From: Alphaproteobacteria bacterium
GTDB lineage: Bacteria; Pseudomonadota; Alphaproteobacteria; SMXP01
Direction of reading: 5' to 3'
Assembly (NCBI GenBank): GCA_021774915.1
Contig: JAJFIO010000054.1
Span: forward strand, 1 to 54,605
DNA length: 54,605 nt
The translations under genes were made by a program, and so were the position numbers. This document shows positions 21,432 to 52,913 of this stretch, piece by piece. The notes under the pieces were generated by a model that worked only from the letters and a program-made list of their open reading frames with translations, did not search any database and was not told the DNA's origin. Positions within the stretch are counted from its first letter, which is position 1. Each line of letters begins with the position of its first letter.

Positions 21432-21698
21432 AATCTGGTCAAAGCGCTCACGCGAGCGCATGTCTGGCGGGACATGATTGAAGCGGGCGGAGTGAAATCA
21501 CTATCAGAACTCTCAGTGCAGACCGGAGTGGAGCGCTCCCATCTTCGCGCCACGCTGCACCTTGCTTTCCTTGCACCCGACATTGCCCAGGCGATCCTTT
21601 CGGGTCGCCAGCCTCGATCACTCACTTTAAGCGCATTGCTTAACGCCAATTTGCCCGTGAGCTGGGCCGCACAACGGCAACTCCTCAGGCTTATTTAA
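21432..21698 (+). pseudogene. 3' fragment of a serine-recombinase (resolvase/invertase-type) family gene, 5' part missing
   Basis: The frame reads NLVKALTRAHVWRDMIEAGGVKSLSELSVQTGVERSHLRATLHLAFLAPDIAQAILSGRQPRSLTLSALL...LPVSWAAQRQLL. From memory this resembles the conserved C-terminus (LLAPDIVEAILDGRQP...W.EQR) of alphaproteobacterial recombinase-family proteins. An in-frame TGA at 21420 and the IR-like relic lie immediately upstream. Confidence 0.45.
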
Positions 21699-21884
21699 AC
21701 CATCACACCCAGAACTGAGGGTCAATCATTGGACGCCGGAGCAAGGGCGCCCAAAGGCCGCCTTATTGCTCCCAAATGAGCGCACATGCCAACCCAATAG
21801 CCTCCACTTCGACACACGGCAGCGCGCAACTGCCACGGCTTATCCAGCGGCGCCCGAAAACAGAGCAGAGTTGGAATAGAGAAG

Positions 21885-21902
21885 TGGCGCACCAGGGAAG
21901 AT
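21885..21902. repeat. imperfect direct copy of the tRNA-Arg 3' end (candidate island att repeat)
   Basis: TGGCGCACCAGGGAAGAT versus 31461-31478 TGGCGCACCCGGCACGAT. The first 9 nt are identical and 15 of 18 match overall. It has the same orientation and starts exactly at the CCA end. Confidence 0.4.
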
Positions 21903-22023
21903 GGAAATGAGAACTGGGTGGTACTGGTTCATGTGCCCTACCGCATAGCAAAATCACAGAAATGAGTTTCTGAAACTCAAATCCCTTTTCGACCAGAGTC
22001 ACAAAGCAAATTCTATTTCCTAA

Positions 22024-22127
22024 GATAAAAGGGAGGGGATGGCATAGCCACCCCCTCATTTTTCGTCGTTTAGACTTATTACGACTGTTAGTCCATACCG
22101 ATCAGGATCTGCTACGTTCCCGTGGAC
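22024..22127 (-). ncRNA. tracrRNA (predicted), divergent from cas9
   Basis: Anti-repeat at 22118-22078, complementary to the minus-sense CRISPR repeat: 30 Watson-Crick pairs, 2 G:U pairs, 1 mismatch and a 5-nt bulge. It is followed by an AAUAAGUC linker, an 11-bp GC hairpin and a U tract. The ends are estimated. Confidence 0.7.
22027..22057 (-). terminator. intrinsic terminator of the predicted tracrRNA
   Basis: The minus strand reads GAGGGGGUGGC-UAU-GCCAUCCCCUC followed by CCUUUUAU. The single non-canonical pair is G:U on the minus strand but A:C on the plus strand. Confidence 0.65.
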
Positions 22128-22133
22128 GTTGCA

Positions 22134-22162
22134 ATGGTGATTGACTCTAGCGATCATGTCAA
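22134..22162 (-). promoter_or_regulatory. candidate sigma70-type promoter for tracrRNA
   Basis: The minus strand has TTGACA (22162-22157), a 17-nt spacer and CACCAT (22139-22134). The -10 is weak. Confidence 0.35.
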
Positions 22163-22200
22163 CAACCATGACAGGAAATCGACAGTTGAGAGGGTTTCTT

Positions 22201-25200
22201 ATGGTCGAACCTGCGCGGAAAATGCGATATCGCCTCGGAATTGACGTGGGTGTTGCCTCGCTGGGCATTGCTATCGTGGAACTGGGCAGCCCAACAAGTT
22301 CAACGCAGGGCAACTTTCCAACTCACATAGTTGGTGGATCGGTGCGAACCTGGCCTATTCCCGAGGGAGCCGCCGAACGCCGCCAAAAGCGGGCAATGCG
22401 ACGTAATATTGAACGTCGAGAACGACGTTTGGACAGGCTTTCTGACCTGCTGGCTGAGAATGGACTGGGCTATCCGAGAAAAGGTGTTCCAAAGGAGCTC
22501 TTGGACAAATCCCCCATAAAATTTCGTGCCAAGGGGTCTCGTGAAAAAATCGGATTGGATGAATTCTCCCGAGCCCTGCTTCACATGGCGCGCCATAGAG
22601 GGAGTAGCGCTTTTCGAGAGTCAGATATCAAGGACGAAAAAGAGGCGCGGCAGACAGCCGAAGCTATTCGAAGTCTGCGCAAGGAAATGAAAAGTAAGAA
22701 TTTTGCGACCTACGGCCAGTTCTTGCGTTGGCGTGAAAAAAAGAACCTTCCCATACGTATCAATCAAACAAAAGCCGCTGGTAACAAGGATGAATATGCC
22801 TTCTATCCCAGCCGTGAAATACTTCGTGAAGAATTTGAAGTAATCTGGAATGAGCAGGCGAAATATTATCCCGCCGAATTGACCGTCACATTGAAGGATA
22901 AAATTAAAAATGAACTCTTCTTTCAGCGAGCGATCACCTCTCCTCCTCCCGCAGATTGTCCGTATTTTTCTGATGAGCAAAGAATTGCACGAGCTTCCCG
23001 CTTATTTCAGATCAGGCGTATTTATGAGGAAGTAAATCATTTGCGCTTTTACAAGAAAAATGGAGAGGTGATTGACTACACACTGGAGCAACGCGATCAG
23101 ATTGTAGCTCGGCTCATGTCAGGGGAAACCCTTAGCTTTGCCGAGATCAAAAAGACCATTGGCCTGGACAGAAGGGATAAAGTCAGCCTTGAGAGCGCAA
23201 AAACACGCAAAGGCATTGATGGATATCCGTTTGATGCTGCTTTGGGGCAGGAAGAGGTTCTGGGAAGTATCTGGCTCAACGCCAATGAAGCCAAACAAGA
23301 TGAAATCCTACGAATTCTGGCTACAGAGCACGATGACAAGCTCGCTATTGAGAAACTTTCACGACTTTTGGGCGACGATCAGGATGCGGCCAAACGCACT
23401 CTTCAGGTTCCACTACCCAAGGGCTGGGGTCATATGGGTTTGTCAGCAACGGTCAAGATTTTGAAAGAACTAAAACGTGAAGTCATTCCCGCGCGAGTGG
23501 CCGAGGATAGAGCTGGTCTCTTTCATACATCAACACCTGACGGTGTCATCTATGACCGGCTCCCATATTATGGTGTAGTTTTGCGTGGACACACTGTTAA
23601 GCCCATTTGGGTCTCAAGTTATCGAAGAGATACCGACCACCCACCGAAAACAAATTCGTTAGAGCAAGAATCTGGACGCATTCCAAATCCTGTTGTTCAC
23701 CTCGCTCTCAACCAAATTCGGCAGACAGTGAACGCTGTTATTGAGAAGTATGGCCTTCCCGAAGGTATCCACATCGAGCTTGCGCGCGACCTCAACAAGA
23801 GTGCAGAAGCGCGGGATGAAATTGACAAACAGAACGAGATAAACCGAAAAAAGAACGACACGGTTCGCTCAATTCTTGAAGGACGCAATGTAACGGTCAA
23901 TCATATTAATATTCAAAAATACAAATTGTGGCAGGAGCAAAGTGGAACTTGTGTCTACACAGGAGAACCAATTAACCTGGATCGCCTCTACTCTGATGAC
24001 GTTCATATTGACCATATTCTTCCTCGTTCAAAAACCTATTTGGACTCTATGGCCAACAAAGTTGTCTGCACACGAGGGGCTAATGCCGATAAAGGCAATC
24101 GCACACCCTATGAAGCTTTTTCTCATGATGCTGATACCTGGGCCTCGATTATGCGGCGTGTTAAAAAACTTCACGACAACAAGAAATGGCGTTTCAATGC
24201 AGATGCCATGAAAAATTTCGAGGACGATAGTGAGAGTTTTCGTGCTCGTTATGGGACTGACAATTCCTACATTGCGAGGGTTGCCAGGCAATATTTGAGC
24301 TGCCTGTATGGTGAACCCACTAAGGTTATTGCTGTCTCAAGTCATATTGTTGGACTTTTGCGTGGCAAATGGGGATTACTCAAGATTCTGGGCGAAAAGA
24401 GTACAGGCAAGAAGGCGCGTGATGATCACCGCCATCACTTTATCGATGCCCTGGTCACCGCCTGTGCGACTCGCGGCATGGTTCAGAAAATTCAAACGGA
24501 AGCGGCGCGGTGTGAACGTGAAAATCTGGAAACTTTCGTACAAAAAATCCAACCGCCCTTTGGTGAGTCAAAAGAGTTTTTCAACTCAGCCAGAGAGGCG
24601 ACATTGGAACGTGTCACTCTTTCACGCAAACCTGATCACTCAAATGAGGGGCAACTGCACGAAGATATCTTGCGGGGGATCGTGGACGGGCCGGATAAGT
24701 CTGGAAAATACACCTGCCGAATACAGAAAAAATTAAGCGACTGCGAAACACTTGCCAAATTCGATAAATCGACATTCAAGGCAACCTTGCCCGAACTTCC
24801 CGAAATACGCACAGCAAAGGCGACCCTGGAAGAACTGAAAAACTCAATACGGAATCATATCCACACTGCGAAACAAGAGCTTGAGACAGAACATGCCGCC
24901 GATGTTGCGTCCGGGAAGAAAGGCAAGGCGATATCTGATCACGCGATTTTTTCAAGAGCTGTTAACTTGCATCAGATCGCTGGTGGCAGATCCACCTTCA
25001 CGCTCTATGAAAAAAGCAAACTGGTGAATATACGCCGGAGCAAGAATGGTAATCGTGCGACAGGGGGCTATATCAGCGGAAGAAACCATCGCATGGATTT
25101 CTACCTGGATGGTAAACAGAAAGTGAAATGGCAATGCATTTCCATGTTAGAGGCCAACGATCCCCATTTCGTGCCAGACGCTAAAAGAAAAGGTTGCGAG

Positions 25201-25479
25201 TGGTTGTGGTCAGCCCACAAGGAGGATGTTCTATTGATGGACAATCCTGATAATGCAAATGAACGGATCCGTGTCATTGTCGCAAAATTCAAGAATGGCT
25301 ATCTTGGAGTAATTCCTGAAAGTGATGCCCGGGACTCAAAAGAAAGGACGCTTTGGGAAAAAGGACTCCAATTCTACTACAAGGCCGGCGCGCAACGCAT
25401 TGTTCTTGATGCGCTGGGAGATATAGTCTGGTACTTCCCTGCCCTTCCACGGTCCGGCAAATTAGAGGTAGCTACATGA
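22201..25479 (+). CDS. cas9: Cas9, type II-C
   Basis: RuvC-I motif MRYRLGIDVGVASLGIAIVEL, Arg-rich bridge helix RRQKRAMRRNIERRERRLDRL, HNH motif DIDHILPRSKTYLDSMANKVVC...ANADKGNRTPYEAF, and RuvC-III motif DDHRHHFIDALV. It is about 1090 aa. The start is taken at ATG 22201, with GAGAGGG 6 nt upstream; ATG 22222 is also possible. The track ORF start at 22141 overlaps the tracrRNA promoter. Confidence 0.93.
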   Translation: MVEPARKMRYRLGIDVGVASLGIAIVELGSPTSSTQGNFPTHIVGGSVRTWPIPEGAAERRQKRAMRRNIERRERRLDRLSDLLAENGLGYPRKGVPKELLDKSPIKFRAKGSREKIGLDEFSRALLHMARHRGSSAFRESDIKDEKEARQTAEAIRSLRKEMKSKNFATYGQFLRWREKKNLPIRINQTKAAGNKDEYAFYPSREILREEFEVIWNEQAKYYPAELTVTLKDKIKNELFFQRAITSPPPADCPYFSDEQRIARASRLFQIRRIYEEVNHLRFYKKNGEVIDYTLEQRDQIVARLMSGETLSFAEIKKTIGLDRRDKVSLESAKTRKGIDGYPFDAALGQEEVLGSIWLNANEAKQDEILRILATEHDDKLAIEKLSRLLGDDQDAAKRTLQVPLPKGWGHMGLSATVKILKELKREVIPARVAEDRAGLFHTSTPDGVIYDRLPYYGVVLRGHTVKPIWVSSYRRDTDHPPKTNSLEQESGRIPNPVVHLALNQIRQTVNAVIEKYGLPEGIHIELARDLNKSAEARDEIDKQNEINRKKNDTVRSILEGRNVTVNHINIQKYKLWQEQSGTCVYTGEPINLDRLYSDDVHIDHILPRSKTYLDSMANKVVCTRGANADKGNRTPYEAFSHDADTWASIMRRVKKLHDNKKWRFNADAMKNFEDDSESFRARYGTDNSYIARVARQYLSCLYGEPTKVIAVSSHIVGLLRGKWGLLKILGEKSTGKKARDDHRHHFIDALVTACATRGMVQKIQTEAARCERENLETFVQKIQPPFGESKEFFNSAREATLERVTLSRKPDHSNEGQLHEDILRGIVDGPDKSGKYTCRIQKKLSDCETLAKFDKSTFKATLPELPEIRTAKATLEELKNSIRNHIHTAKQELETEHAADVASGKKGKAISDHAIFSRAVNLHQIAGGRSTFTLYEKSKLVNIRRSKNGNRATGGYISGRNHRMDFYLDGKQKVKWQCISMLEANDPHFVPDAKRKGCEWLWSAHKEDVLLMDNPDNANERIRVIVAKFKNGYLGVIPESDARDSKERTLWEKGLQFYYKAGAQRIVLDALGDIVWYFPALPRSGKLEVAT

Positions 25480-26408
25480 GTTGGCAAATTGTTGACGTTG
25501 TAGAAGATGGGCGCTATCTGCATACAGACCGTGAGTGGATGGTTGTTAAGGAAAATCAGATTGAAATCGGTAGAATACCTTTGACCGATATTCAATCAAT
25601 CCTGGTGCATGCGGGTTATGCCACCTATTCACATGAACTTTTACTGCGTCTGTCTGAATATGATATACCTCTTGTCATCTGTGACCACCGCCATGAACCT
25701 ATTTCCATTCTCCTATCACTGAGCGGTCACCACAAACAGGCCGGTCGCGTAAGGGCGCAATCAGAAAGCACAATACCTGTGAGAAAGCGCGTCTGGCGCG
25801 ACCTTGTAAAGAAGAAGGTTCTTGAACAGGCAAACAGCCTTAAACCATTTGATCGCATCGGACATGACGGCCTTCGAAAATTGGCATCAAAGGTAAAATC
25901 TGGCGACCCGGACAATATTGAGGCTCGTGCAGCCCGATACTATTGGCCACGCCTCTTTGATAAAACCTTTCGAAGAGATCGCAGCCAGCCGGGTCTCAAT
26001 GCACATTTGAATTACGGCTATACTATTCTGCGCTCTGCTGTGGCTCGGGCGATTACCGCCGCTGGCCTTGTACCATCACTGGGTGTTGGGCACGTTAACG
26101 CCCGCAACAATTTCTGTCTTGCCGATGATCTCGTGGAACCATTCCGGCCTTTGGTGGATCGGTTGGTATGGAAAAACCGGAGCAAATGGGCGGACGAATT
26201 GACGCCGGAAGCTCGTAAGGAACTCGCGGGCATGATGTCTAGGTCAATCCGGACGGAAGATGGAGAAACAGACCTCTTTCGTACCATGACGATGGTCGCC
26301 ATCAGTCTGGCAAACCTGTTCGAAGGCACCGTGAGCAAGCTTTATATGCCCGGAAAAGTAGCATTTGTGGACTCACCCCGGTTCCCCGGATTTGAGATCG
26401 GATCGTAA
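25476..26408 (+). CDS. cas1: Cas1 integrase
   Basis: LNYGYTILRSAVARAITAAGLVPSLGVGHVNARNNFCLADDLVEPFRPLVD. ATGA overlap with the cas9 stop. Confidence 0.92.
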   Translation: MSWQIVDVVEDGRYLHTDREWMVVKENQIEIGRIPLTDIQSILVHAGYATYSHELLLRLSEYDIPLVICDHRHEPISILLSLSGHHKQAGRVRAQSESTIPVRKRVWRDLVKKKVLEQANSLKPFDRIGHDGLRKLASKVKSGDPDNIEARAARYYWPRLFDKTFRRDRSQPGLNAHLNYGYTILRSAVARAITAAGLVPSLGVGHVNARNNFCLADDLVEPFRPLVDRLVWKNRSKWADELTPEARKELAGMMSRSIRTEDGETDLFRTMTMVAISLANLFEGTVSKLYMPGKVAFVDSPRFPGFEIGS

Positions 26409-26440
26409 GCAAATGTTCAACTCAAACAGAGAGCCTGACC

Positions 26441-26767
26441 GTGCTTTCATCGTACAAGATTATGTGGCTGCTCGTTGTTTTTGACCTGCCTGTCGGCTCA
26501 AAGAGTGAACGACGCAGGGCAACGGGCTTTCGAAATAGGCTGCTCGACGAGGGTTTTTTTATGAAACAATTCTCGGTCTACCTGAGATCATGCCCCAACC
26601 GGCCAAGCGCAGAGGCCCTAGCGGACCGAATTGGCAAAAACGCGCCGCCAGAAGGAGATGTTTCAATTTTATTTTTCACCGACAAACAATATGGCCTCAC
26701 CCGGAATTACGCGGGCAAAGCCATTAAAGAAACCGAAGAAAAACCACCTCAGCTTCTATTATTCTAG
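26441..26767 (+). CDS. cas2: Cas2
   Basis: MWLLVVFDLPVGSKSERRRATGFRNRLLDEGFFMKQFSVYLR ferredoxin-like fold pattern. The start is GTG 26441 or ATG 26462. Confidence 0.88.
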   Translation: MLSSYKIMWLLVVFDLPVGSKSERRRATGFRNRLLDEGFFMKQFSVYLRSCPNRPSAEALADRIGKNAPPEGDVSILFFTDKQYGLTRNYAGKAIKETEEKPPQLLLF

Positions 26768-26839: not shown

Positions 26840-28130
26840 AGTGTAGCAGATGCTGATCGGTATGGCAGCCGTAACAATGGGCGCTACACGCCGCCCGTCG
26901 ACCCCAGTGTAGCAGATGCTGATCGGTATGGCAGCCGTAACCAGAGCGAAGCAATATGTTTCAGCCACATTAGTGTAGCAGATGCTGATCGGTATGGCAG
27001 CCGTAACGTGAACGGCGCAACGTAATCTAGTTTCTTCAGTGTAGCAGATGCTGATCGGTATGGCAGCCGTAACTGGTGGACTTCCAGATTGTGGGCGATC
27101 TCTAGTGTAGCAGATGCTGATCGGTATGGCAGCCGTAACAGTAATGTCAGCCTCAATTGTCGCCTGATTAGTGTAGCAGATGCTGATCGGTATGGCAGCC
27201 GTAACAGCATAGACGGCATAATAGAATCAATAACGTAGTGTAGCAGATGCTGATCGGTATGGCAGCCGTAACCTAATTTTTGTATGGGATTGCTCAATAT
27301 GAAGTGTAGCAGATGCTGATCGGTATGGCAGCCGTAACAACCAACCATTGGGGTGTAAGAGTTCTGGAAGTGTAGCAGATGCTGATCGGTATGGCAGCCG
27401 TAACCGTCATCACTCGCGGCGCGTCCAATCCGTCAGTGTAGCAGATGCTGATCGGTATGGCAGCCGTAACAACCAACCATTGGGGTGTAAGAGTTCTGGA
27501 AGTGTAGCAGATGCTGATCGGTATGGCAGCCGTAACTCTCATCCCACTGCTCGCCGGACACCATCCAGTGTAGCAGATGCTGATCGGTATGGCAGCCGTA
27601 ACTGGTACGCCGATGTGGTGTTCGAGACTTCGAGTGTAGCAGATGCTGATCGGTATGGCAGCCGTAACTAAGATCGGCCCTGTAAAGATCGGCCCCGCAG
27701 TGTAGCAGATGCTGATCGGTATGGCAGCCGTAACTTAGTGTTTCATCCATCACCAGCTCCCTCCAGTGTAGCAGATGCTGATCGGTATGGCAGCCGTAAC
27801 AGCGTGAATGTTCATTTGCCGTGGCTGATAAGTGTAGCAGATGCTGATCGGTATGGCAGCCGTAACTCCATCTGTTATGTCAATTACCATCCGACAAGTG
27901 TAGCAGATGCTGATCGGTATGGCAGCCGTAACTGTGATATCAGCCTCAATCGTCGCCTGATTAGTGTAGCAGATGCTGATCGGTATGGCAGCCGTAACTG
28001 GTGTTCTTTGTTCTTCCGTTAAATAGTGAGTGTAGCAGATGCTGATCGGTATGGCAGCCGTAACGGTTTGGGTATTTTATAAGAATACAAATCAAGTGTA
28101 GCAGATGCTGATCGGTATGGCAGATCCACA
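26840..28130 (-). CRISPR. CRISPR array: 20 repeats of 36 bp (19 identical plus 1 degenerate at 28095-28130) and 19 spacers (18 of 30 bp, one of 31 bp)
   Basis: The plus-strand repeat is AGTGTAGCAGATGCTGATCGGTATGGCAGCCGTAAC. Repeats start at 26840, 26906, 26972, 27038, 27104, 27170, 27237, and then every 66 bp to 28095. The crRNA sense is inferred as minus (GTTACGGCTGCCATACCGATCAGCATCTGCTACACT). This rests on tracrRNA complementarity and on resemblance to the Neisseria II-C repeat. A 72-bp AT-rich stretch (26768-26839) separates the array from cas2. Confidence 0.97.
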
Positions 28131-28132
28131 AG

Positions 28133-28158
28133 CCCCCCGTGTTTAGTAACACGGGGGG
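28133..28158. terminator. 11-bp GC-rich hairpin at the cas-distal end of the array
   Basis: CCCCCCGTGTT-TAGT-AACACGGGGGG, followed by TTCT on the plus strand. Only a short T run follows on either strand. Confidence 0.5.
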
Positions 28159-28400
28159 TTCTAAATACATGGGACCGGATCGAGCGTGCCGAATTTGATA
28201 TTTTTGGAGGATGGGGGCTTGCCGCTGGAGCAGCTCAACGGATCCACCCCTTGCCCCGCAAAGAACCTCCCAGACAAAAAGCAGGAATTTTTTAGCCTTT
28301 CATGGCTGCCCATAGGTCATATGGGCTTATTTTTCCCGTTCTCACGCAGTGCACAATCAGACCCAAAAATATCGATAGAAAAAACGAATCAGTAAGGGCT

Positions 28401-28481: not shown

Positions 28482-28559
28482 GATATTTTTTGTTGCGAAA
28501 CGAGAAATATGGTTATTTATAGATGGCTCCATTTGAAATCCAGCAATAAGGAGCCAAGA

Positions 28560-29663
28560 ATGAGTGAGACATTTTCCGGATTTGACAAGACAGAAACCTA
28601 TCCGCTTCTACTTTCAGGATTCGATACCCTCGAAGTCAGCTATTTCGTCAATGTCCCGTCAAGTGACCTTGATCTTGAGGATCTGGAATACCGCAAGGAA
28701 AGCCTCAAAGCGAATTACGGTGACGGGTTTGACAAGGTTCGTCTGGGAACAGAGACCTTCGCCCTCAAACCTTACGGCCGGGATAAATACAAGTTCGTCC
28801 TGTCGAACAAGTCCTTTGAGGTTCTGCTCGCTGAACACATGCGGCCAAGCTGCCGCGTAAAATTCTTCAGCGAGGCTCTCTGGCATGAGGGCCTTCAGGG
28901 GCTGATGGATCGTTTTGAACTCTGGTGCAAATCATTATCACTTGTTGCTTTCCGGCCTGAGACCGTGGGCCGTGCCGACTGGGCCTTCGACTACCATGTC
29001 CCGCGCGTCGATTTTAGCTGGGACGACTTTGTCTCCCGCGTACGCAAGGACAATGCCTATCGCGAGTCAGGCGTGGTTCAGACGTTTCAGTTCGGCAAGT
29101 CTGACATCGTGGTGCGGGTCTATGACAAGGTTGCTGAGATCGAAGAAAAAAGCGGAAAAGTGTGGTTCTATGATCTGTGGGGCCGCAAGAGCAGCGTCTG
29201 GCGGATCGAGTTCCAACTTCGGCGGGACGCCCTTAAGAGTCACGGCATCGGATCACTTGAGAGCCTGCTCGACTTGCAGAACGATACTCTGTTTCACCTT
29301 GCGCACACTCACACCACCCTTCGCAGACCCAATGGCGACAGCAATCGCTCTCGCTGGCCGCTGCACCCATTGTGGGACGCCCTGCAGAAACACATTGAGG
29401 ATCTGCCACGAAGCGGCCTGGTGCGGGCCTTCGATGAGAAGAAGGCCTTGGACTATCGCCTCTTCAAGCAATCGCAGGGCATTTACGGACATCTGAAGGG
29501 GCTTATGGCGCTGGAATGCATCAGGACAGGGAAACCTGCATCAAGCACCCTGAGGGAAGTCCTGGAACGCCTCAGACCGCATCTTGAAGATCATCACCAT
29601 TCCATCCCATGGGAGGCGGATGTTGAAAAACGGGTCAGGGCATACGAGGTAGGCCAGTGGTAA
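28560..29663 (+). CDS. replication initiation factor (Rep_trans / RstA-like rolling-circle initiator or relaxase)
   Basis: VQTFQFGKSDIVVRVYDKVAEIEEKSG...SSVWRIEFQLRRDAL fits the recalled Rep_trans pattern (T.Y.G.R.S...R.YDK..E....W.R.E.E.R). The start is ATG 28560, with AAGGAG 7 nt upstream. Confidence 0.6.
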   Translation: MSETFSGFDKTETYPLLLSGFDTLEVSYFVNVPSSDLDLEDLEYRKESLKANYGDGFDKVRLGTETFALKPYGRDKYKFVLSNKSFEVLLAEHMRPSCRVKFFSEALWHEGLQGLMDRFELWCKSLSLVAFRPETVGRADWAFDYHVPRVDFSWDDFVSRVRKDNAYRESGVVQTFQFGKSDIVVRVYDKVAEIEEKSGKVWFYDLWGRKSSVWRIEFQLRRDALKSHGIGSLESLLDLQNDTLFHLAHTHTTLRRPNGDSNRSRWPLHPLWDALQKHIEDLPRSGLVRAFDEKKALDYRLFKQSQGIYGHLKGLMALECIRTGKPASSTLREVLERLRPHLEDHHHSIPWEADVEKRVRAYEVGQW

Positions 29664-29848
29664 GGCATATCGATGACCCGGCAGGCCCAAAGAGCAAACC
29701 GCTTAAAGCCGACAATGACAACGGGTTGGATGTTGAGGAGGTCTGGCCTGAAGTCATCTTCGTGACAGAAAACGAACTCCGGCTTCTCGAAACGAGATTT
29801 ACGGATATAATCTCAGAAATTGTAGCGGCCAATGACAATAATCCCTGA
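29657..29848 (+). CDS. hypothetical small acidic protein (63 aa)
   Basis: GTG start overlapping the rep stop; the 3' end overlaps the upstream extension of the recombinase ORF. By my count it has 14 Asp/Glu against 6 Lys/Arg. No recognisable motif. Confidence 0.4.
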   Translation: MVRHIDDPAGPKSKPLKADNDNGLDVEEVWPEVIFVTENELRLLETRFTDIISEIVAANDNNP

Positions 29849-29873
29849 TAAGGGATCCTGGAAAAGGCAAGAT

Positions 29874-31537
<1,664 letters not shown>

Positions 31538-51662: not shown

Positions 51663-52913
51663 TTACTCAGCCATAGATTTCATAGGAATTGACATGTCCG
51701 CCAGCCGTTCCGGCGCAATCCGGGCATGGGCTGCAATCAATTTGCGCGATACCATATATTCCGGAACCGCATTGATAGCGTCAGTAGCGATGAGCACGCC
51801 CTCTTTAAGGTAAAACGCGGCGAACTTACGGGCAGACGGATCGCCGCGCAAGACAATCTGGTCGTATCCTTGGCTCAATCCGGCAATCTGAAGTTTAACA
51901 TCATATTGATCGGACCAGAACCAGGGAACCTGATTGTATTCAGTCAAGATGCCGCACATGGCGGCGGCGGCGGTTTTGGCTTGTTCCAACGCATTATGGA
52001 CGGATTCGAGTCTGAGGCGCCGCCCATAAACCCCATTGGGGTGATTGGTGCAATCTCCTGCGGCAAAGATATCCGGATCTTGCGTTCGGCAGCTGGTATC
52101 AACCACAATACCATTATCGACAGCAAGCCCGGCCTCTCTCGCGAGCTCCTGATTAGGGACGATCCCGACGCCAATCACTGCGATATCCGCTTGCCACACC
52201 GACCCATCCGCACAAACCACACGTTCGAGCTTGCCTACCCCTTCCAATGCCGATACCGCTTGGCCGGTCTTGATGGTCACACCTTCCTCCGCATGGAGCG
52301 ATTCAAAAAAATCGGAGACTTCCCTGCCTACAGCCCGGGCCATAACACGGGATTCGGCTTCCAGCACCGTGACATCGAGCCCGAGTTTCTTAGTAGAAGC
52401 GGCAACTTCCAAGCCGATATACCCGCCGCCGACAATGACGATTTTTGCACCTTTTGTGCAATAAGCGCGTATGCCTTCGACATCATCAATGGTGCGCAGA
52501 TACAATACGCCCGGCAGGTCAACGCCGGGCAAAGGAATTGCGCGGATGCGCGAACCGGTGGTCAGCAACGCCTTATCGTAGGAAATCACACGCCCATCAT
52601 CCAGAGTGACGGTTTTCCTATTCCGGTCAAGCTGTGTCACGGTCGTGTCCAGCAGCAATTCGATGTCATTTTTTGCGTAATAATCGGGAGGTTTGAAATA
52701 TAATCGATCAAGCGCCAGGTCGCCCGACAAAAACGCTTTGGACAAGGCGGGGCGTTGATAGGGCGCGTAAGATTCTTCACCAATCAGAATGAGCCGTCCC
52801 TTAAAGCCTTTGGATCGCAAGGTCACCGCAGCTTGGCCCGCAGCGTGCCCAGCGCCAATCACAATATAGGTTTCTTGGGCCTCCCCTTGAGCCTGATCGC
52901 CCGATGCCATCAC
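51663..52913 (-). CDS. NAD(P)H-dependent ferredoxin reductase (FAD/NAD-binding oxidoreductase)
   Basis: IVIGAGHAAGQ and VIVGGGYIGLEVA dinucleotide folds, plus IFAAGDC. Confidence 0.85.
   Translation of the reverse strand: MMASGDQAQGEAQETYIVIGAGHAAGQAAVTLRSKGFKGRLILIGEESYAPYQRPALSKAFLSGDLALDRLYFKPPDYYAKNDIELLLDTTVTQLDRNRKTVTLDDGRVISYDKALLTTGSRIRAIPLPGVDLPGVLYLRTIDDVEGIRAYCTKGAKIVIVGGGYIGLEVAASTKKLGLDVTVLEAESRVMARAVGREVSDFFESLHAEEGVTIKTGQAVSALEGVGKLERVVCADGSVWQADIAVIGVGIVPNQELAREAGLAVDNGIVVDTSCRTQDPDIFAAGDCTNHPNGVYGRRLRLESVHNALEQAKTAAAAMCGILTEYNQVPWFWSDQYDVKLQIAGLSQGYDQIVLRGDPSARKFAAFYLKEGVLIATDAINAVPEYMVSRKLIAAHARIAPERLADMSIPMKSMAE

Follow-up and report, generated by a model that had tools for sequence, protein, structure and literature searches.

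A predicted tracrRNA gene upstream of and divergent from cas9 in a minimal type II-C CRISPR-Cas locus of an alphaproteobacterium

The cas9 locus, the element upstream of it and its pairing with the repeat

We analyzed a 54,605-nucleotide stretch of DNA from an alphaproteobacterium (GenBank assembly GCA_021774915.1, contig JAJFIO010000054.1), and refer to this whole stretch as the window. [quoted passage not shown] We are highly confident in predicting that this element is the gene for the trans-activating CRISPR RNA (tracrRNA) of a type II-C CRISPR-Cas9 system. The genes cas9, cas1 and cas2 are contiguous on the plus strand (22201–26767) and the array follows from 26840, which together make a minimal type II locus. 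A protein identical to the 1092-residue Cas9 is on record at NCBI. The list of open reading frames (ORFs) of the window contains no csn2 or cas4 ORF at the locus, and there is no room for a further ORF between 26767 and 26840. Because the operon consists of cas9, cas1 and cas2 only, with neither csn2 nor cas4, the locus is of type II-C.

Genes and array of the locus
22201–25479, plus strand: cas9, 1092 amino acids; TIGR01865 at 530 bits; HNH_4, RuvC_III and Cas9_a domains
25476–26408, plus strand: cas1 (type II, NMENI subtype); TIGR03639 at 262 bits
26441–26767, plus strand: cas2; TIGR01573 at 66 bits
26840–28130, minus strand (predicted): CRISPR array, 20 repeats of 36 nt and 19 spacers of 30–31 nt

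The tracrRNA element is located 74 nt upstream of cas9 and points away from it. Read from 5′ to 3′, the predicted RNA comprises a leader, an anti-repeat, an AA linker, a 3-bp nexus hairpin, the segment GAAAAAU and an 11-bp terminator hairpin. Its 5′ end was placed from the position of the −10 box and its 3′ end from the U-tract, so both are accurate to a few nucleotides at best. In silico, the 5′ two-thirds of the element is complementary to the repeat and co-evolves with it, and the 3′ third forms the nexus and the terminator.

Parts of the predicted tracrRNA gene
22025–22127, minus strand: predicted primary tracrRNA of about 100 nt; covariance model match with homologues in 24 loci
22103–22122, minus strand: possible 5′ hairpin of the free tracrRNA, in which leader CGGGA (22122–22118) pairs with UCCUG (22107–22103)
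22093–22115, minus strand: anti-repeat upper stem, pairing with repeat positions 11–33, with a 1 × 1 mismatch opposite repeat C24
22088–22092, minus strand: tracrRNA-side bulge ACUAA of 5 nt, from pairing and RNAcofold; 3–5 nt and variable in sequence in relatives
22078–22087, minus strand: anti-repeat lower stem CAGUCGUAAU, pairing with repeat positions 1–10, including the invariant G1:U and G7:U wobbles
22076–22077, minus strand: invariant AA linker directly before the nexus hairpin
22065–22075, minus strand: nexus hairpin GUC-UAAAC-GAC with a 3-bp stem, paired in 24/24 sequences
22033–22057, minus strand: terminator hairpin GAGGGGGUGGC-UAU-GCCAUCCCCUC; terminator scan with 11 pairs, 8 of them G-C, one G:U and a loop of 3

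A preliminary description of this interval had read plus-strand positions 22078–22118 as a diverged copy of the minus-sense repeat, followed on the RNA by AAUAAGUCUAAACGACGAAAAAU, an 11-bp hairpin and CCUUUUAU. All of these parts are present. The anti-repeat reads ATTACGACTG-TTAGT-CCATACCGATCAGGATCTGCTACGTT on the plus strand, AAUAAGUCUAAACGACGAAAAAU stands immediately 3′ of it, the hairpin was recovered by the terminator scan and CCUUUUAU follows at 22025–22032 on the minus strand.

In the minus sense the repeat has the consensus GTTACGGCTGCCATACCGATCAGCATCTGCTACACT; 19 copies in the array agree with it perfectly and one, at the end, is degenerate. When the minus-strand RNA is set against repeat positions 1–33, 32 of the 33 positions pair, with 30 Watson–Crick pairs, the two wobbles G1:U and G7:U, a C:C mismatch at repeat position 24 and the 5-nt bulge. 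This is the duplex that the preliminary description had drawn, and RNAcofold, given the repeat and a 103-nt minus-strand RNA, returned exactly the same hybrid as the minimum-energy dimer, together with the GUC/GAC hairpin and the 11-bp terminal hairpin. The co-folding check that it had proposed was also run: the repeat:anti-repeat duplex is stable, at −51.3 kcal/mol by duplexfold vs −20.4 ± 3.3 kcal/mol for 1000 shuffled repeats.

The tracrRNA site is the strongest repeat-pairing site among 7078 tiles of 60 nt taken from both strands of the window minus the array (mean −17.9 kcal/mol, standard deviation 4.6), and it is the sole anti-repeat candidate in the window by the duplexfold scan and by a covariance model search alike. 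The runner-up, a G/U-rich site at 52176–52235 on the minus strand (−40.3 kcal/mol), lies inside the gene for a 416-residue Pyr_redox_2 reductase, and we regard it as a chance match.

Conservation, co-variation and strand

We compared the element with 24 related loci for which the 5′ flank of cas9 was available and whose Cas9 proteins are 39–73% identical to that of the window. These homologues come from alphaproteobacterial genomes and marine metagenomes, including Varunaivibrio sulfuroxidans and a Parvibaculum metagenome-assembled genome. A profile search found the same element in 24/24 of the loci, about 75–100 nt upstream of cas9 and on the opposite strand. In V. sulfuroxidans TC8 (CP119676.1), a cultured relative, it occupies L160:5813–5920, at about 1,577,374–1,577,481 and minus relative to cas9. 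A covariance model built from the relatives has a single match in the window, on the minus strand at 22022–22127 (107.6 bits, E = 2e-21), and its matches in all 24 related loci lie at the corresponding place, upstream of cas9 and antiparallel to it. Since the genes farther upstream vary from locus to locus, the element appears to travel with the cas module.

The same model gave matches of 36–42 bits about 100 nt upstream of cas9, on the minus strand, in six uncultured alphaproteobacterial loci (L021, L022, L027, L030, L041 and L043) in which Cas9 is only 28–29% identical. These matches suggest that the divergent upstream layout of the tracrRNA gene, and part of its sequence, reach beyond the close clade. 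Two of the relatives have a damaged adaptation module. In L001 (9252–9330) only about 75 nt separate the end of cas9 from the cognate array, which indicates that cas1 and cas2 have been deleted there. In L089 (9248–10452) cas1 is truncated and passes into an array whose 36-nt repeat, GTTGCGGGTTGCCCCCAAGGCCGGAATGTCTAAGCT, is unrelated and cannot pair with the L089 tracrRNA; this arrangement may be a rearrangement or a metagenome mis-assembly.

For co-variation, the repeat of each of 18 loci with arrays was joined to the upstream element of the same locus and the pairs were counted. Standard pairs fill 98.4% of the 805 cells, and 22 of the 45 pairs have changed on both sides. None of 500 shuffles reached any of five co-variation measures, and sliding the partner by 1–3 columns lowered pairing to 26–50%. 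Changes on both sides are found in 11 intermolecular pairs, although the array and the anti-repeat are about 4.7 kb apart. Among these switches are G6:C to A:U, C8:G to U:A, G10:C to U:A, A13:U to G:C or U:A, U14:A to C:G, G18:C to A:U and C27:G to U:A. By helix, the lower stem (helix 1) is 97.2% paired with compensatory changes in three pairs, and the upper stem (helix 2) is 99.5% paired with compensatory changes in 8 of 22.

The 3′ part of the element co-varies as well. Nine of the ten pairs of the terminator hairpin carry compensatory changes within the family, and the nexus stem occurs as GUC/GAC, AUC/GAU, GUU/AAC or GUA/UAC, fully paired in each of the 24 sequences, with a covariation score that 0/500 shuffles reached. 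A competing intramolecular pairing between GUCGU of the lower anti-repeat and ACGAC on the 3′ side of the nexus was rejected, as 325 of 500 shuffles did equally well. RNAalifold also proposed a helix within the anti-repeat (A2 columns 31–35 with 44–48); it shows no two-sided changes and was judged an artefact that arises when the tracrRNA is folded in the absence of its CRISPR RNA (crRNA) partner.

The pairing also bears on the strand. The preliminary description had argued from the wobbles that both RNAs come from the minus strand, and this argument extends to the whole family: G1:U and G7:U are found in 18/18 loci, and each of the 58 G:U cells among the 805 would be an A·C mismatch if both RNAs were read from the plus strand. 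Because the invariant wobbles would be A·C on the other strand, both RNAs are predicted to be minus-strand transcripts. Only a minus-strand reading gives a coherent nexus, promoter and hairpin with a T-rich tail. From the tracrRNA strand and the wobble pairs it follows that the crRNAs would be minus-sense, with the array read toward cas2 and opposite to the cas operon.

The shared promoter region, the start of cas9 and the 5′ leader

Predicted promoters between the tracrRNA gene and cas9
22134–22162, minus strand: predicted tracrRNA promoter, −35 TTGACA (22162–22157), 17-nt spacer, −10 CACCAT (22139–22134)
22141–22169, plus strand: predicted cas9 promoter, −35 TTGACT (22141–22146), 17-nt spacer, −10 AACCAT (22164–22169)

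The two predicted promoters occupy the same 36 bp (22134–22169), back to back and with interleaved −35 boxes. The minus-strand TTGACA-17 nt-CACCAT pointed out in the preliminary description is present, and both of its boxes are conserved in position: relatives have TTGACA-N18-GATAAT where the window has TTGACA-N17-CACCAT. When the promoter boxes are tabulated, TTGAC-N12-GTCAA occurs with exact spacing in 20 of the 24 loci. On the minus strand the relatives read TTGACA-N17/18 and then a −10 box that is mostly GATAAT, AATAAT or TACAAT, in place of CACCAT in the window, and the distance from the −10 box to the start of the anti-repeat is 17–21 nt. On the plus strand the window reads TTGACT-N17-AACCAT, of which A2 and the AT at positions 5–6 of the −10 box are retained in most of the closer loci. 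Conservation is what argues for a promoter of the tracrRNA gene's own.

As a whole, 22134–22169 is nearly symmetric (ATGGTG-A-TTGACT-N10-TGTCAA-C-AACCAT) and conserved in this form across the clade, and such a site could equally bind a dimeric regulator. A further promoter-like string lies on the plus strand inside the anti-repeat, at 22110–22118. It reads TGCTACGTT, compared with the extended −10-like TGCTACACT of the repeat, keeps T1, A2 and T6, and is directed toward cas9. Its GTT is nearly invariant in close relatives though unpaired with the repeat. TGCTACGTT may be a vestigial or secondary cas9 promoter.

The interleaved boxes bear on where cas9 begins. The ORF called mechanically as cas9 opens at TTG 22141 and would encode 1112 amino acids. 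As the preliminary description had proposed, ATG 22201 is the better start. The NCBI protein has 1092 residues, so the deposited annotation starts cas9 at ATG 22201 and not at TTG 22141. A Shine-Dalgarno-like GAGAGGG (22189–22195) precedes this ATG, and the start codon of the relatives aligns with it in an alignment of the spacer between anti-repeat and cas9. In the consensus of 38 homologues the invariant YRLGIDVG is preceded by nine residues, and ATG 22201 gives the same nine. The alternative named in the preliminary description, ATG 22222, fails on this point, leaving only two residues before YRLGIDVG. The predicted and conserved start of cas9 is therefore ATG 22201, and TTG 22141 reads as the −35 box of the predicted cas9 promoter and not as a start codon. 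The closest homologue (L164, 1518–4856; protein P0002, 1112 amino acids) has the same 20-codon 5′ extension as the window ORF, and its start has probably been miscalled inside the −35 box of the cas9 promoter.

The leader of the tracrRNA appears to have a structure of its own. In the free RNA, the leader could pair with the distal anti-repeat to form the 5′ hairpin given above, which exposes the 10-nt loop ACGUAGCAGA. This hairpin is 85–90% paired in the relatives and has compensatory changes in at least three lineages, with G:C to C:G switches in L083, L165, L089, L090 and L088 and two further switched pairs in L169. Leader and anti-repeat of the same locus pair at −8.0 kcal/mol vs −5.6 kcal/mol for non-cognate combinations, a difference for which 0/10,000 permutations gave a value as low. 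The leader co-variation supports a transcript start upstream of 22122, and the leader pairing hints at a functional 5′ hairpin. By sequestering the distal anti-repeat and presenting ACGUAGCAGA, the hairpin could serve as a nucleation site for repeat pairing, as an occluder or as a stability element.

We also considered, tentatively and as an unlikely though possible case, that the conserved bidirectional promoter for tracrRNA and cas9, together with the co-varying 5′ hairpin of the tracrRNA, would add a layer of regulation so far undescribed in type II-C systems. If this were true, the interleaved −35 boxes would allow RNA polymerase to engage in one direction at a time only, and such one-direction use would couple or ration the synthesis of tracrRNA and Cas9.

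Proposed role, rival explanations and the array

The predicted RNA displays every feature of a tracrRNA that can be tested on sequence: locus context, an imperfect and bulged hybrid, a spacer-proximal G:U pair, a nexus, a terminator and co-evolution of repeat and anti-repeat. In the mechanism that we propose, transcription from the sigma-70-type promoter TTGACA-17-CACCAT would run along the minus strand away from cas9 and yield a tracrRNA of about 100 nt. Folding in silico pairs 33 of its nucleotides with the first 33 nt of each minus-sense repeat; a G:U adjoining the spacer would open the 10-bp lower stem of this hybrid, and beyond the 5-nt bulge would come an upper stem of 23 positions with one mismatch. 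By the general architecture of type II guide RNAs (PMC6546382), Cas9 would bind through the lower stem, the bulge, the nexus and the 3′ hairpin.

In the minus sense, the extended −10-like box TGCTACACT closes each repeat. Going by Neisseria meningitidis and Campylobacter jejuni, the crRNAs of the predicted minus-strand array probably start inside each spacer, driven by TGCTACACT of the preceding repeat. The last three bases of the repeat are conserved as A-N-T across the clade, though they are unpaired with the tracrRNA, which fits a promoter role of the repeat 3′ end. RNase III may trim the crRNA:tracrRNA duplex near the mismatch at position 24, and the resulting dual RNA would guide Cas9 to DNA cleavage.

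Several points weigh against identifying the interval as a tracrRNA gene. The identification is drawn entirely from sequence and in silico folding, and the co-variation sequences are related, so that the shuffle counts overstate significance; this caveat is mitigated by changes in several separate lineages and by the slid controls, which preserve relatedness. A consensus sigma-70 scan of 21600–22500 called no promoter; it missed TTGACA-17-CACCAT because just 3 of the 6 positions of the −10 box CACCAT agree with the consensus. The U-tract in CCUUUUAU is short and interrupted, with 4 U. No family of Rfam 15 reaches its gathering threshold in the tracrRNA interval, and a search of 21800–22300 relaxed to E ≤ 10 yielded nothing above chance level, the best match being sraA at 20.6 bits vs a threshold of 56; this silence probably means that Rfam has no suitable model, rather than being counter-evidence. 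Finally, the array orientation lacks independent support from the side of the protospacer-adjacent motif because no protospacers were found: the 18 distinct spacers of the window gave only two matches, at E of about 0.8, in a phage collection, exact scans of IMG/VR with two spacer cores returned none, and 191 spacers of related arrays had no match outside arrays in the collected DNA.

The weak −10 box of the window would also be expected if the interval were a decayed orphan repeat that happens to lie beside a terminator hairpin, neither a functional gene nor the source of a discrete RNA, and anti-repeats are indeed thought to derive from degenerate repeats (PMC3737331; PMC6546382). But in a fossil the promoter boxes, the nexus and the terminator would not have lasted down to 39–52% Cas9 identity, nor would compensatory changes matched to the repeats of each locus have built up. 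Moreover, the window offers no other anti-repeat candidate, yet it has 19 perfect repeats and intact cas genes. We therefore consider an orphan repeat very improbable. A plus-strand element that regulates cas9 instead of acting as a tracrRNA, whether a cr-like RNA or a stretch of a long leader transcribed into cas9 from upstream, conflicts with the invariant G:U pairs, which would turn into A·C mismatches in 58 cells. Positions 22078–22118 are repeat-like in the crRNA sense on that strand, TGCTACGTT is kept as an extended −10-like box pointing to cas9, and standalone repeat-like regulatory RNAs of CRISPR-cas loci have been described (PMC10120712). However, the plus-strand RNA folds at −30.4 kcal/mol vs −37.6 kcal/mol for the minus strand, the hairpin with its T-tract and the nexus make sense on the minus strand only, and the system would be left without any tracrRNA, which gives this explanation an even slimmer chance.

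A short protein gene on the minus strand has the least in its favor, and we give it almost no credence. Two ORFs of the mechanical list, of 98 amino acids (21763–22059) and 85 amino acids (22056–22313), overlap the interval. A Pfam scan of the 98-residue ORF, the only one of the two that was scanned, found no match, and the 85-residue ORF would cross the start of cas9 and both promoters in antisense. The relatives show single-nucleotide indels in the bulge, the nexus loop and the terminator loop, and variation tracks base pairing, not codons.

A tracrRNA gene also agrees with what is described for type II guide RNAs, namely an imperfect bulged hybrid, a spacer-proximal G:U, a nexus and a Rho-independent terminator, with variable position and orientation of the gene (Faure et al. 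2018, PMC6546382). All the defining modules of that architecture are found here, and a tracrRNA gene upstream of cas9 and in the opposite direction is one of the arrangements that it lists. There are two differences: the nexus stem here has only 3 bp, unlike the general architecture, and the hybrid (−51.3 kcal/mol by duplexfold) is more stable than the type II-C median of −39.4 kcal/mol (PMC6546382), although the methods may not be comparable.

The closest parallels are in Neisseria meningitidis and Campylobacter jejuni, where the array has been shown experimentally to be read opposite to the cas operon (PMC3737331); in N. meningitidis the promoters are embedded in the repeats (PMC5965381). 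The N. meningitidis locus (Zhang et al. 2013 via PMC5965381, PMC3737331) is alike in having cas9-cas1-cas2 and, as predicted here, an array read opposite to the operon. It is further alike in its 36-nt repeats with a promoter-like extended −10 box at the 3′ end (TGCTACACT here), in the order of anti-repeat, nexus and terminator, in repeats that begin with GTT and in a hybrid that starts with G:U. The repeat-end box of Neisseria, which we take to be TGCTACAAT, is found in the relative L166. The internal sequences of repeat and anti-repeat are unrelated and the Cas9 proteins belong to different clades. Moreover, the tracrRNA gene of Neisseria presumably lies between cas9 and cas1, whereas that of the window is upstream of and divergent from cas9 and shares an interleaved promoter region with it. 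Expression and independence from RNase III have been shown for Neisseria and are only inferred here.

According to Dugar et al. 2013 (PMC3656092), the repeats of C. jejuni NCTC11168 end in the extended −10-like GGTAAAAT, its crRNAs have their starts within spacers, and repeat and tracrRNA pair with each other. The minimal type II-C organization, the extended −10-like repeat ends and the tracrRNA:repeat pairing are thus shared with the window. The sequences and the Cas9 clade differ, and the C. jejuni RNAs are based on differential RNA sequencing and Northern blots, those of the window on sequence. The tracrRNA of Streptococcus pyogenes resembles ours in that its gene adjoins cas9 and its 5′ segment folds back on the anti-repeat. 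In its long form, this type II-A tracrRNA is said to repress the cas9 promoter, a finding attributed to Workman et al. 2021. Unlike in S. pyogenes, the leader here has only about 12 nt, and its partner is the distal, upper-stem part of the anti-repeat rather than the lower stem. Since the leader pairs there, it is predicted to be unable to mimic a single-guide RNA.

Hence we describe an as yet undescribed tracrRNA of a well-known class, in an already known gene arrangement; a full-text literature search with the repeat and anti-repeat strings returned no paper. A tracrRNA is an expected and ordinary part of a type II-C locus. For annotation, the analysis adds a previously unannotated small-RNA gene, sets the array on the minus strand and places the start of cas9 at ATG 22201. 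It also provides a sequence and a covariation-backed structure for single-guide RNA design in a previously uncharacterised clade of alphaproteobacterial Cas9 proteins of about 1090 amino acids, and a covariance model that finds the tracrRNA within this clade.

The array has some further features. Its cas-distal repeat (28095–28130) has six differences within 7 nt at the outer end, and is degenerate only in the minus-sense 5′ part, with the 3′ part containing TGCTACACT intact. The same holds in L083, L090, L160, L162 and L165, and in these loci, as in the window, the cas-proximal repeat is always perfect. We did not use the degenerate repeat as evidence for orientation, as a first unit that serves as promoter only and an old repeat at the trailer end fit it equally well. 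Spacers 8 and 10 (27339–27368 and 27471–27500) are identical, and spacers 5 and 17 (27140–27169 and 27933–27962) have 4 mismatches over 30 positions and look like spacers against variants of one protospacer.

Directly after the array, at 28136–28161, is a perfect 9-bp G+C hairpin, CCCCCCGTG-N8-CACGGGGGG, which might terminate transcription in both directions or insulate the boundary of the array. Farther downstream, the genes of 28509–31537 suggest a small element integrated at a tRNA beside the CRISPR locus: a weak Rep_trans-like ORF (28509–29663) and a large serine recombinase (29832–31526; Resolvase, Recombinase and Zn_ribbon_recom domains) are accompanied by a minus-strand tRNA gene (31464–31537) that overlaps the 3′ end of the recombinase gene.

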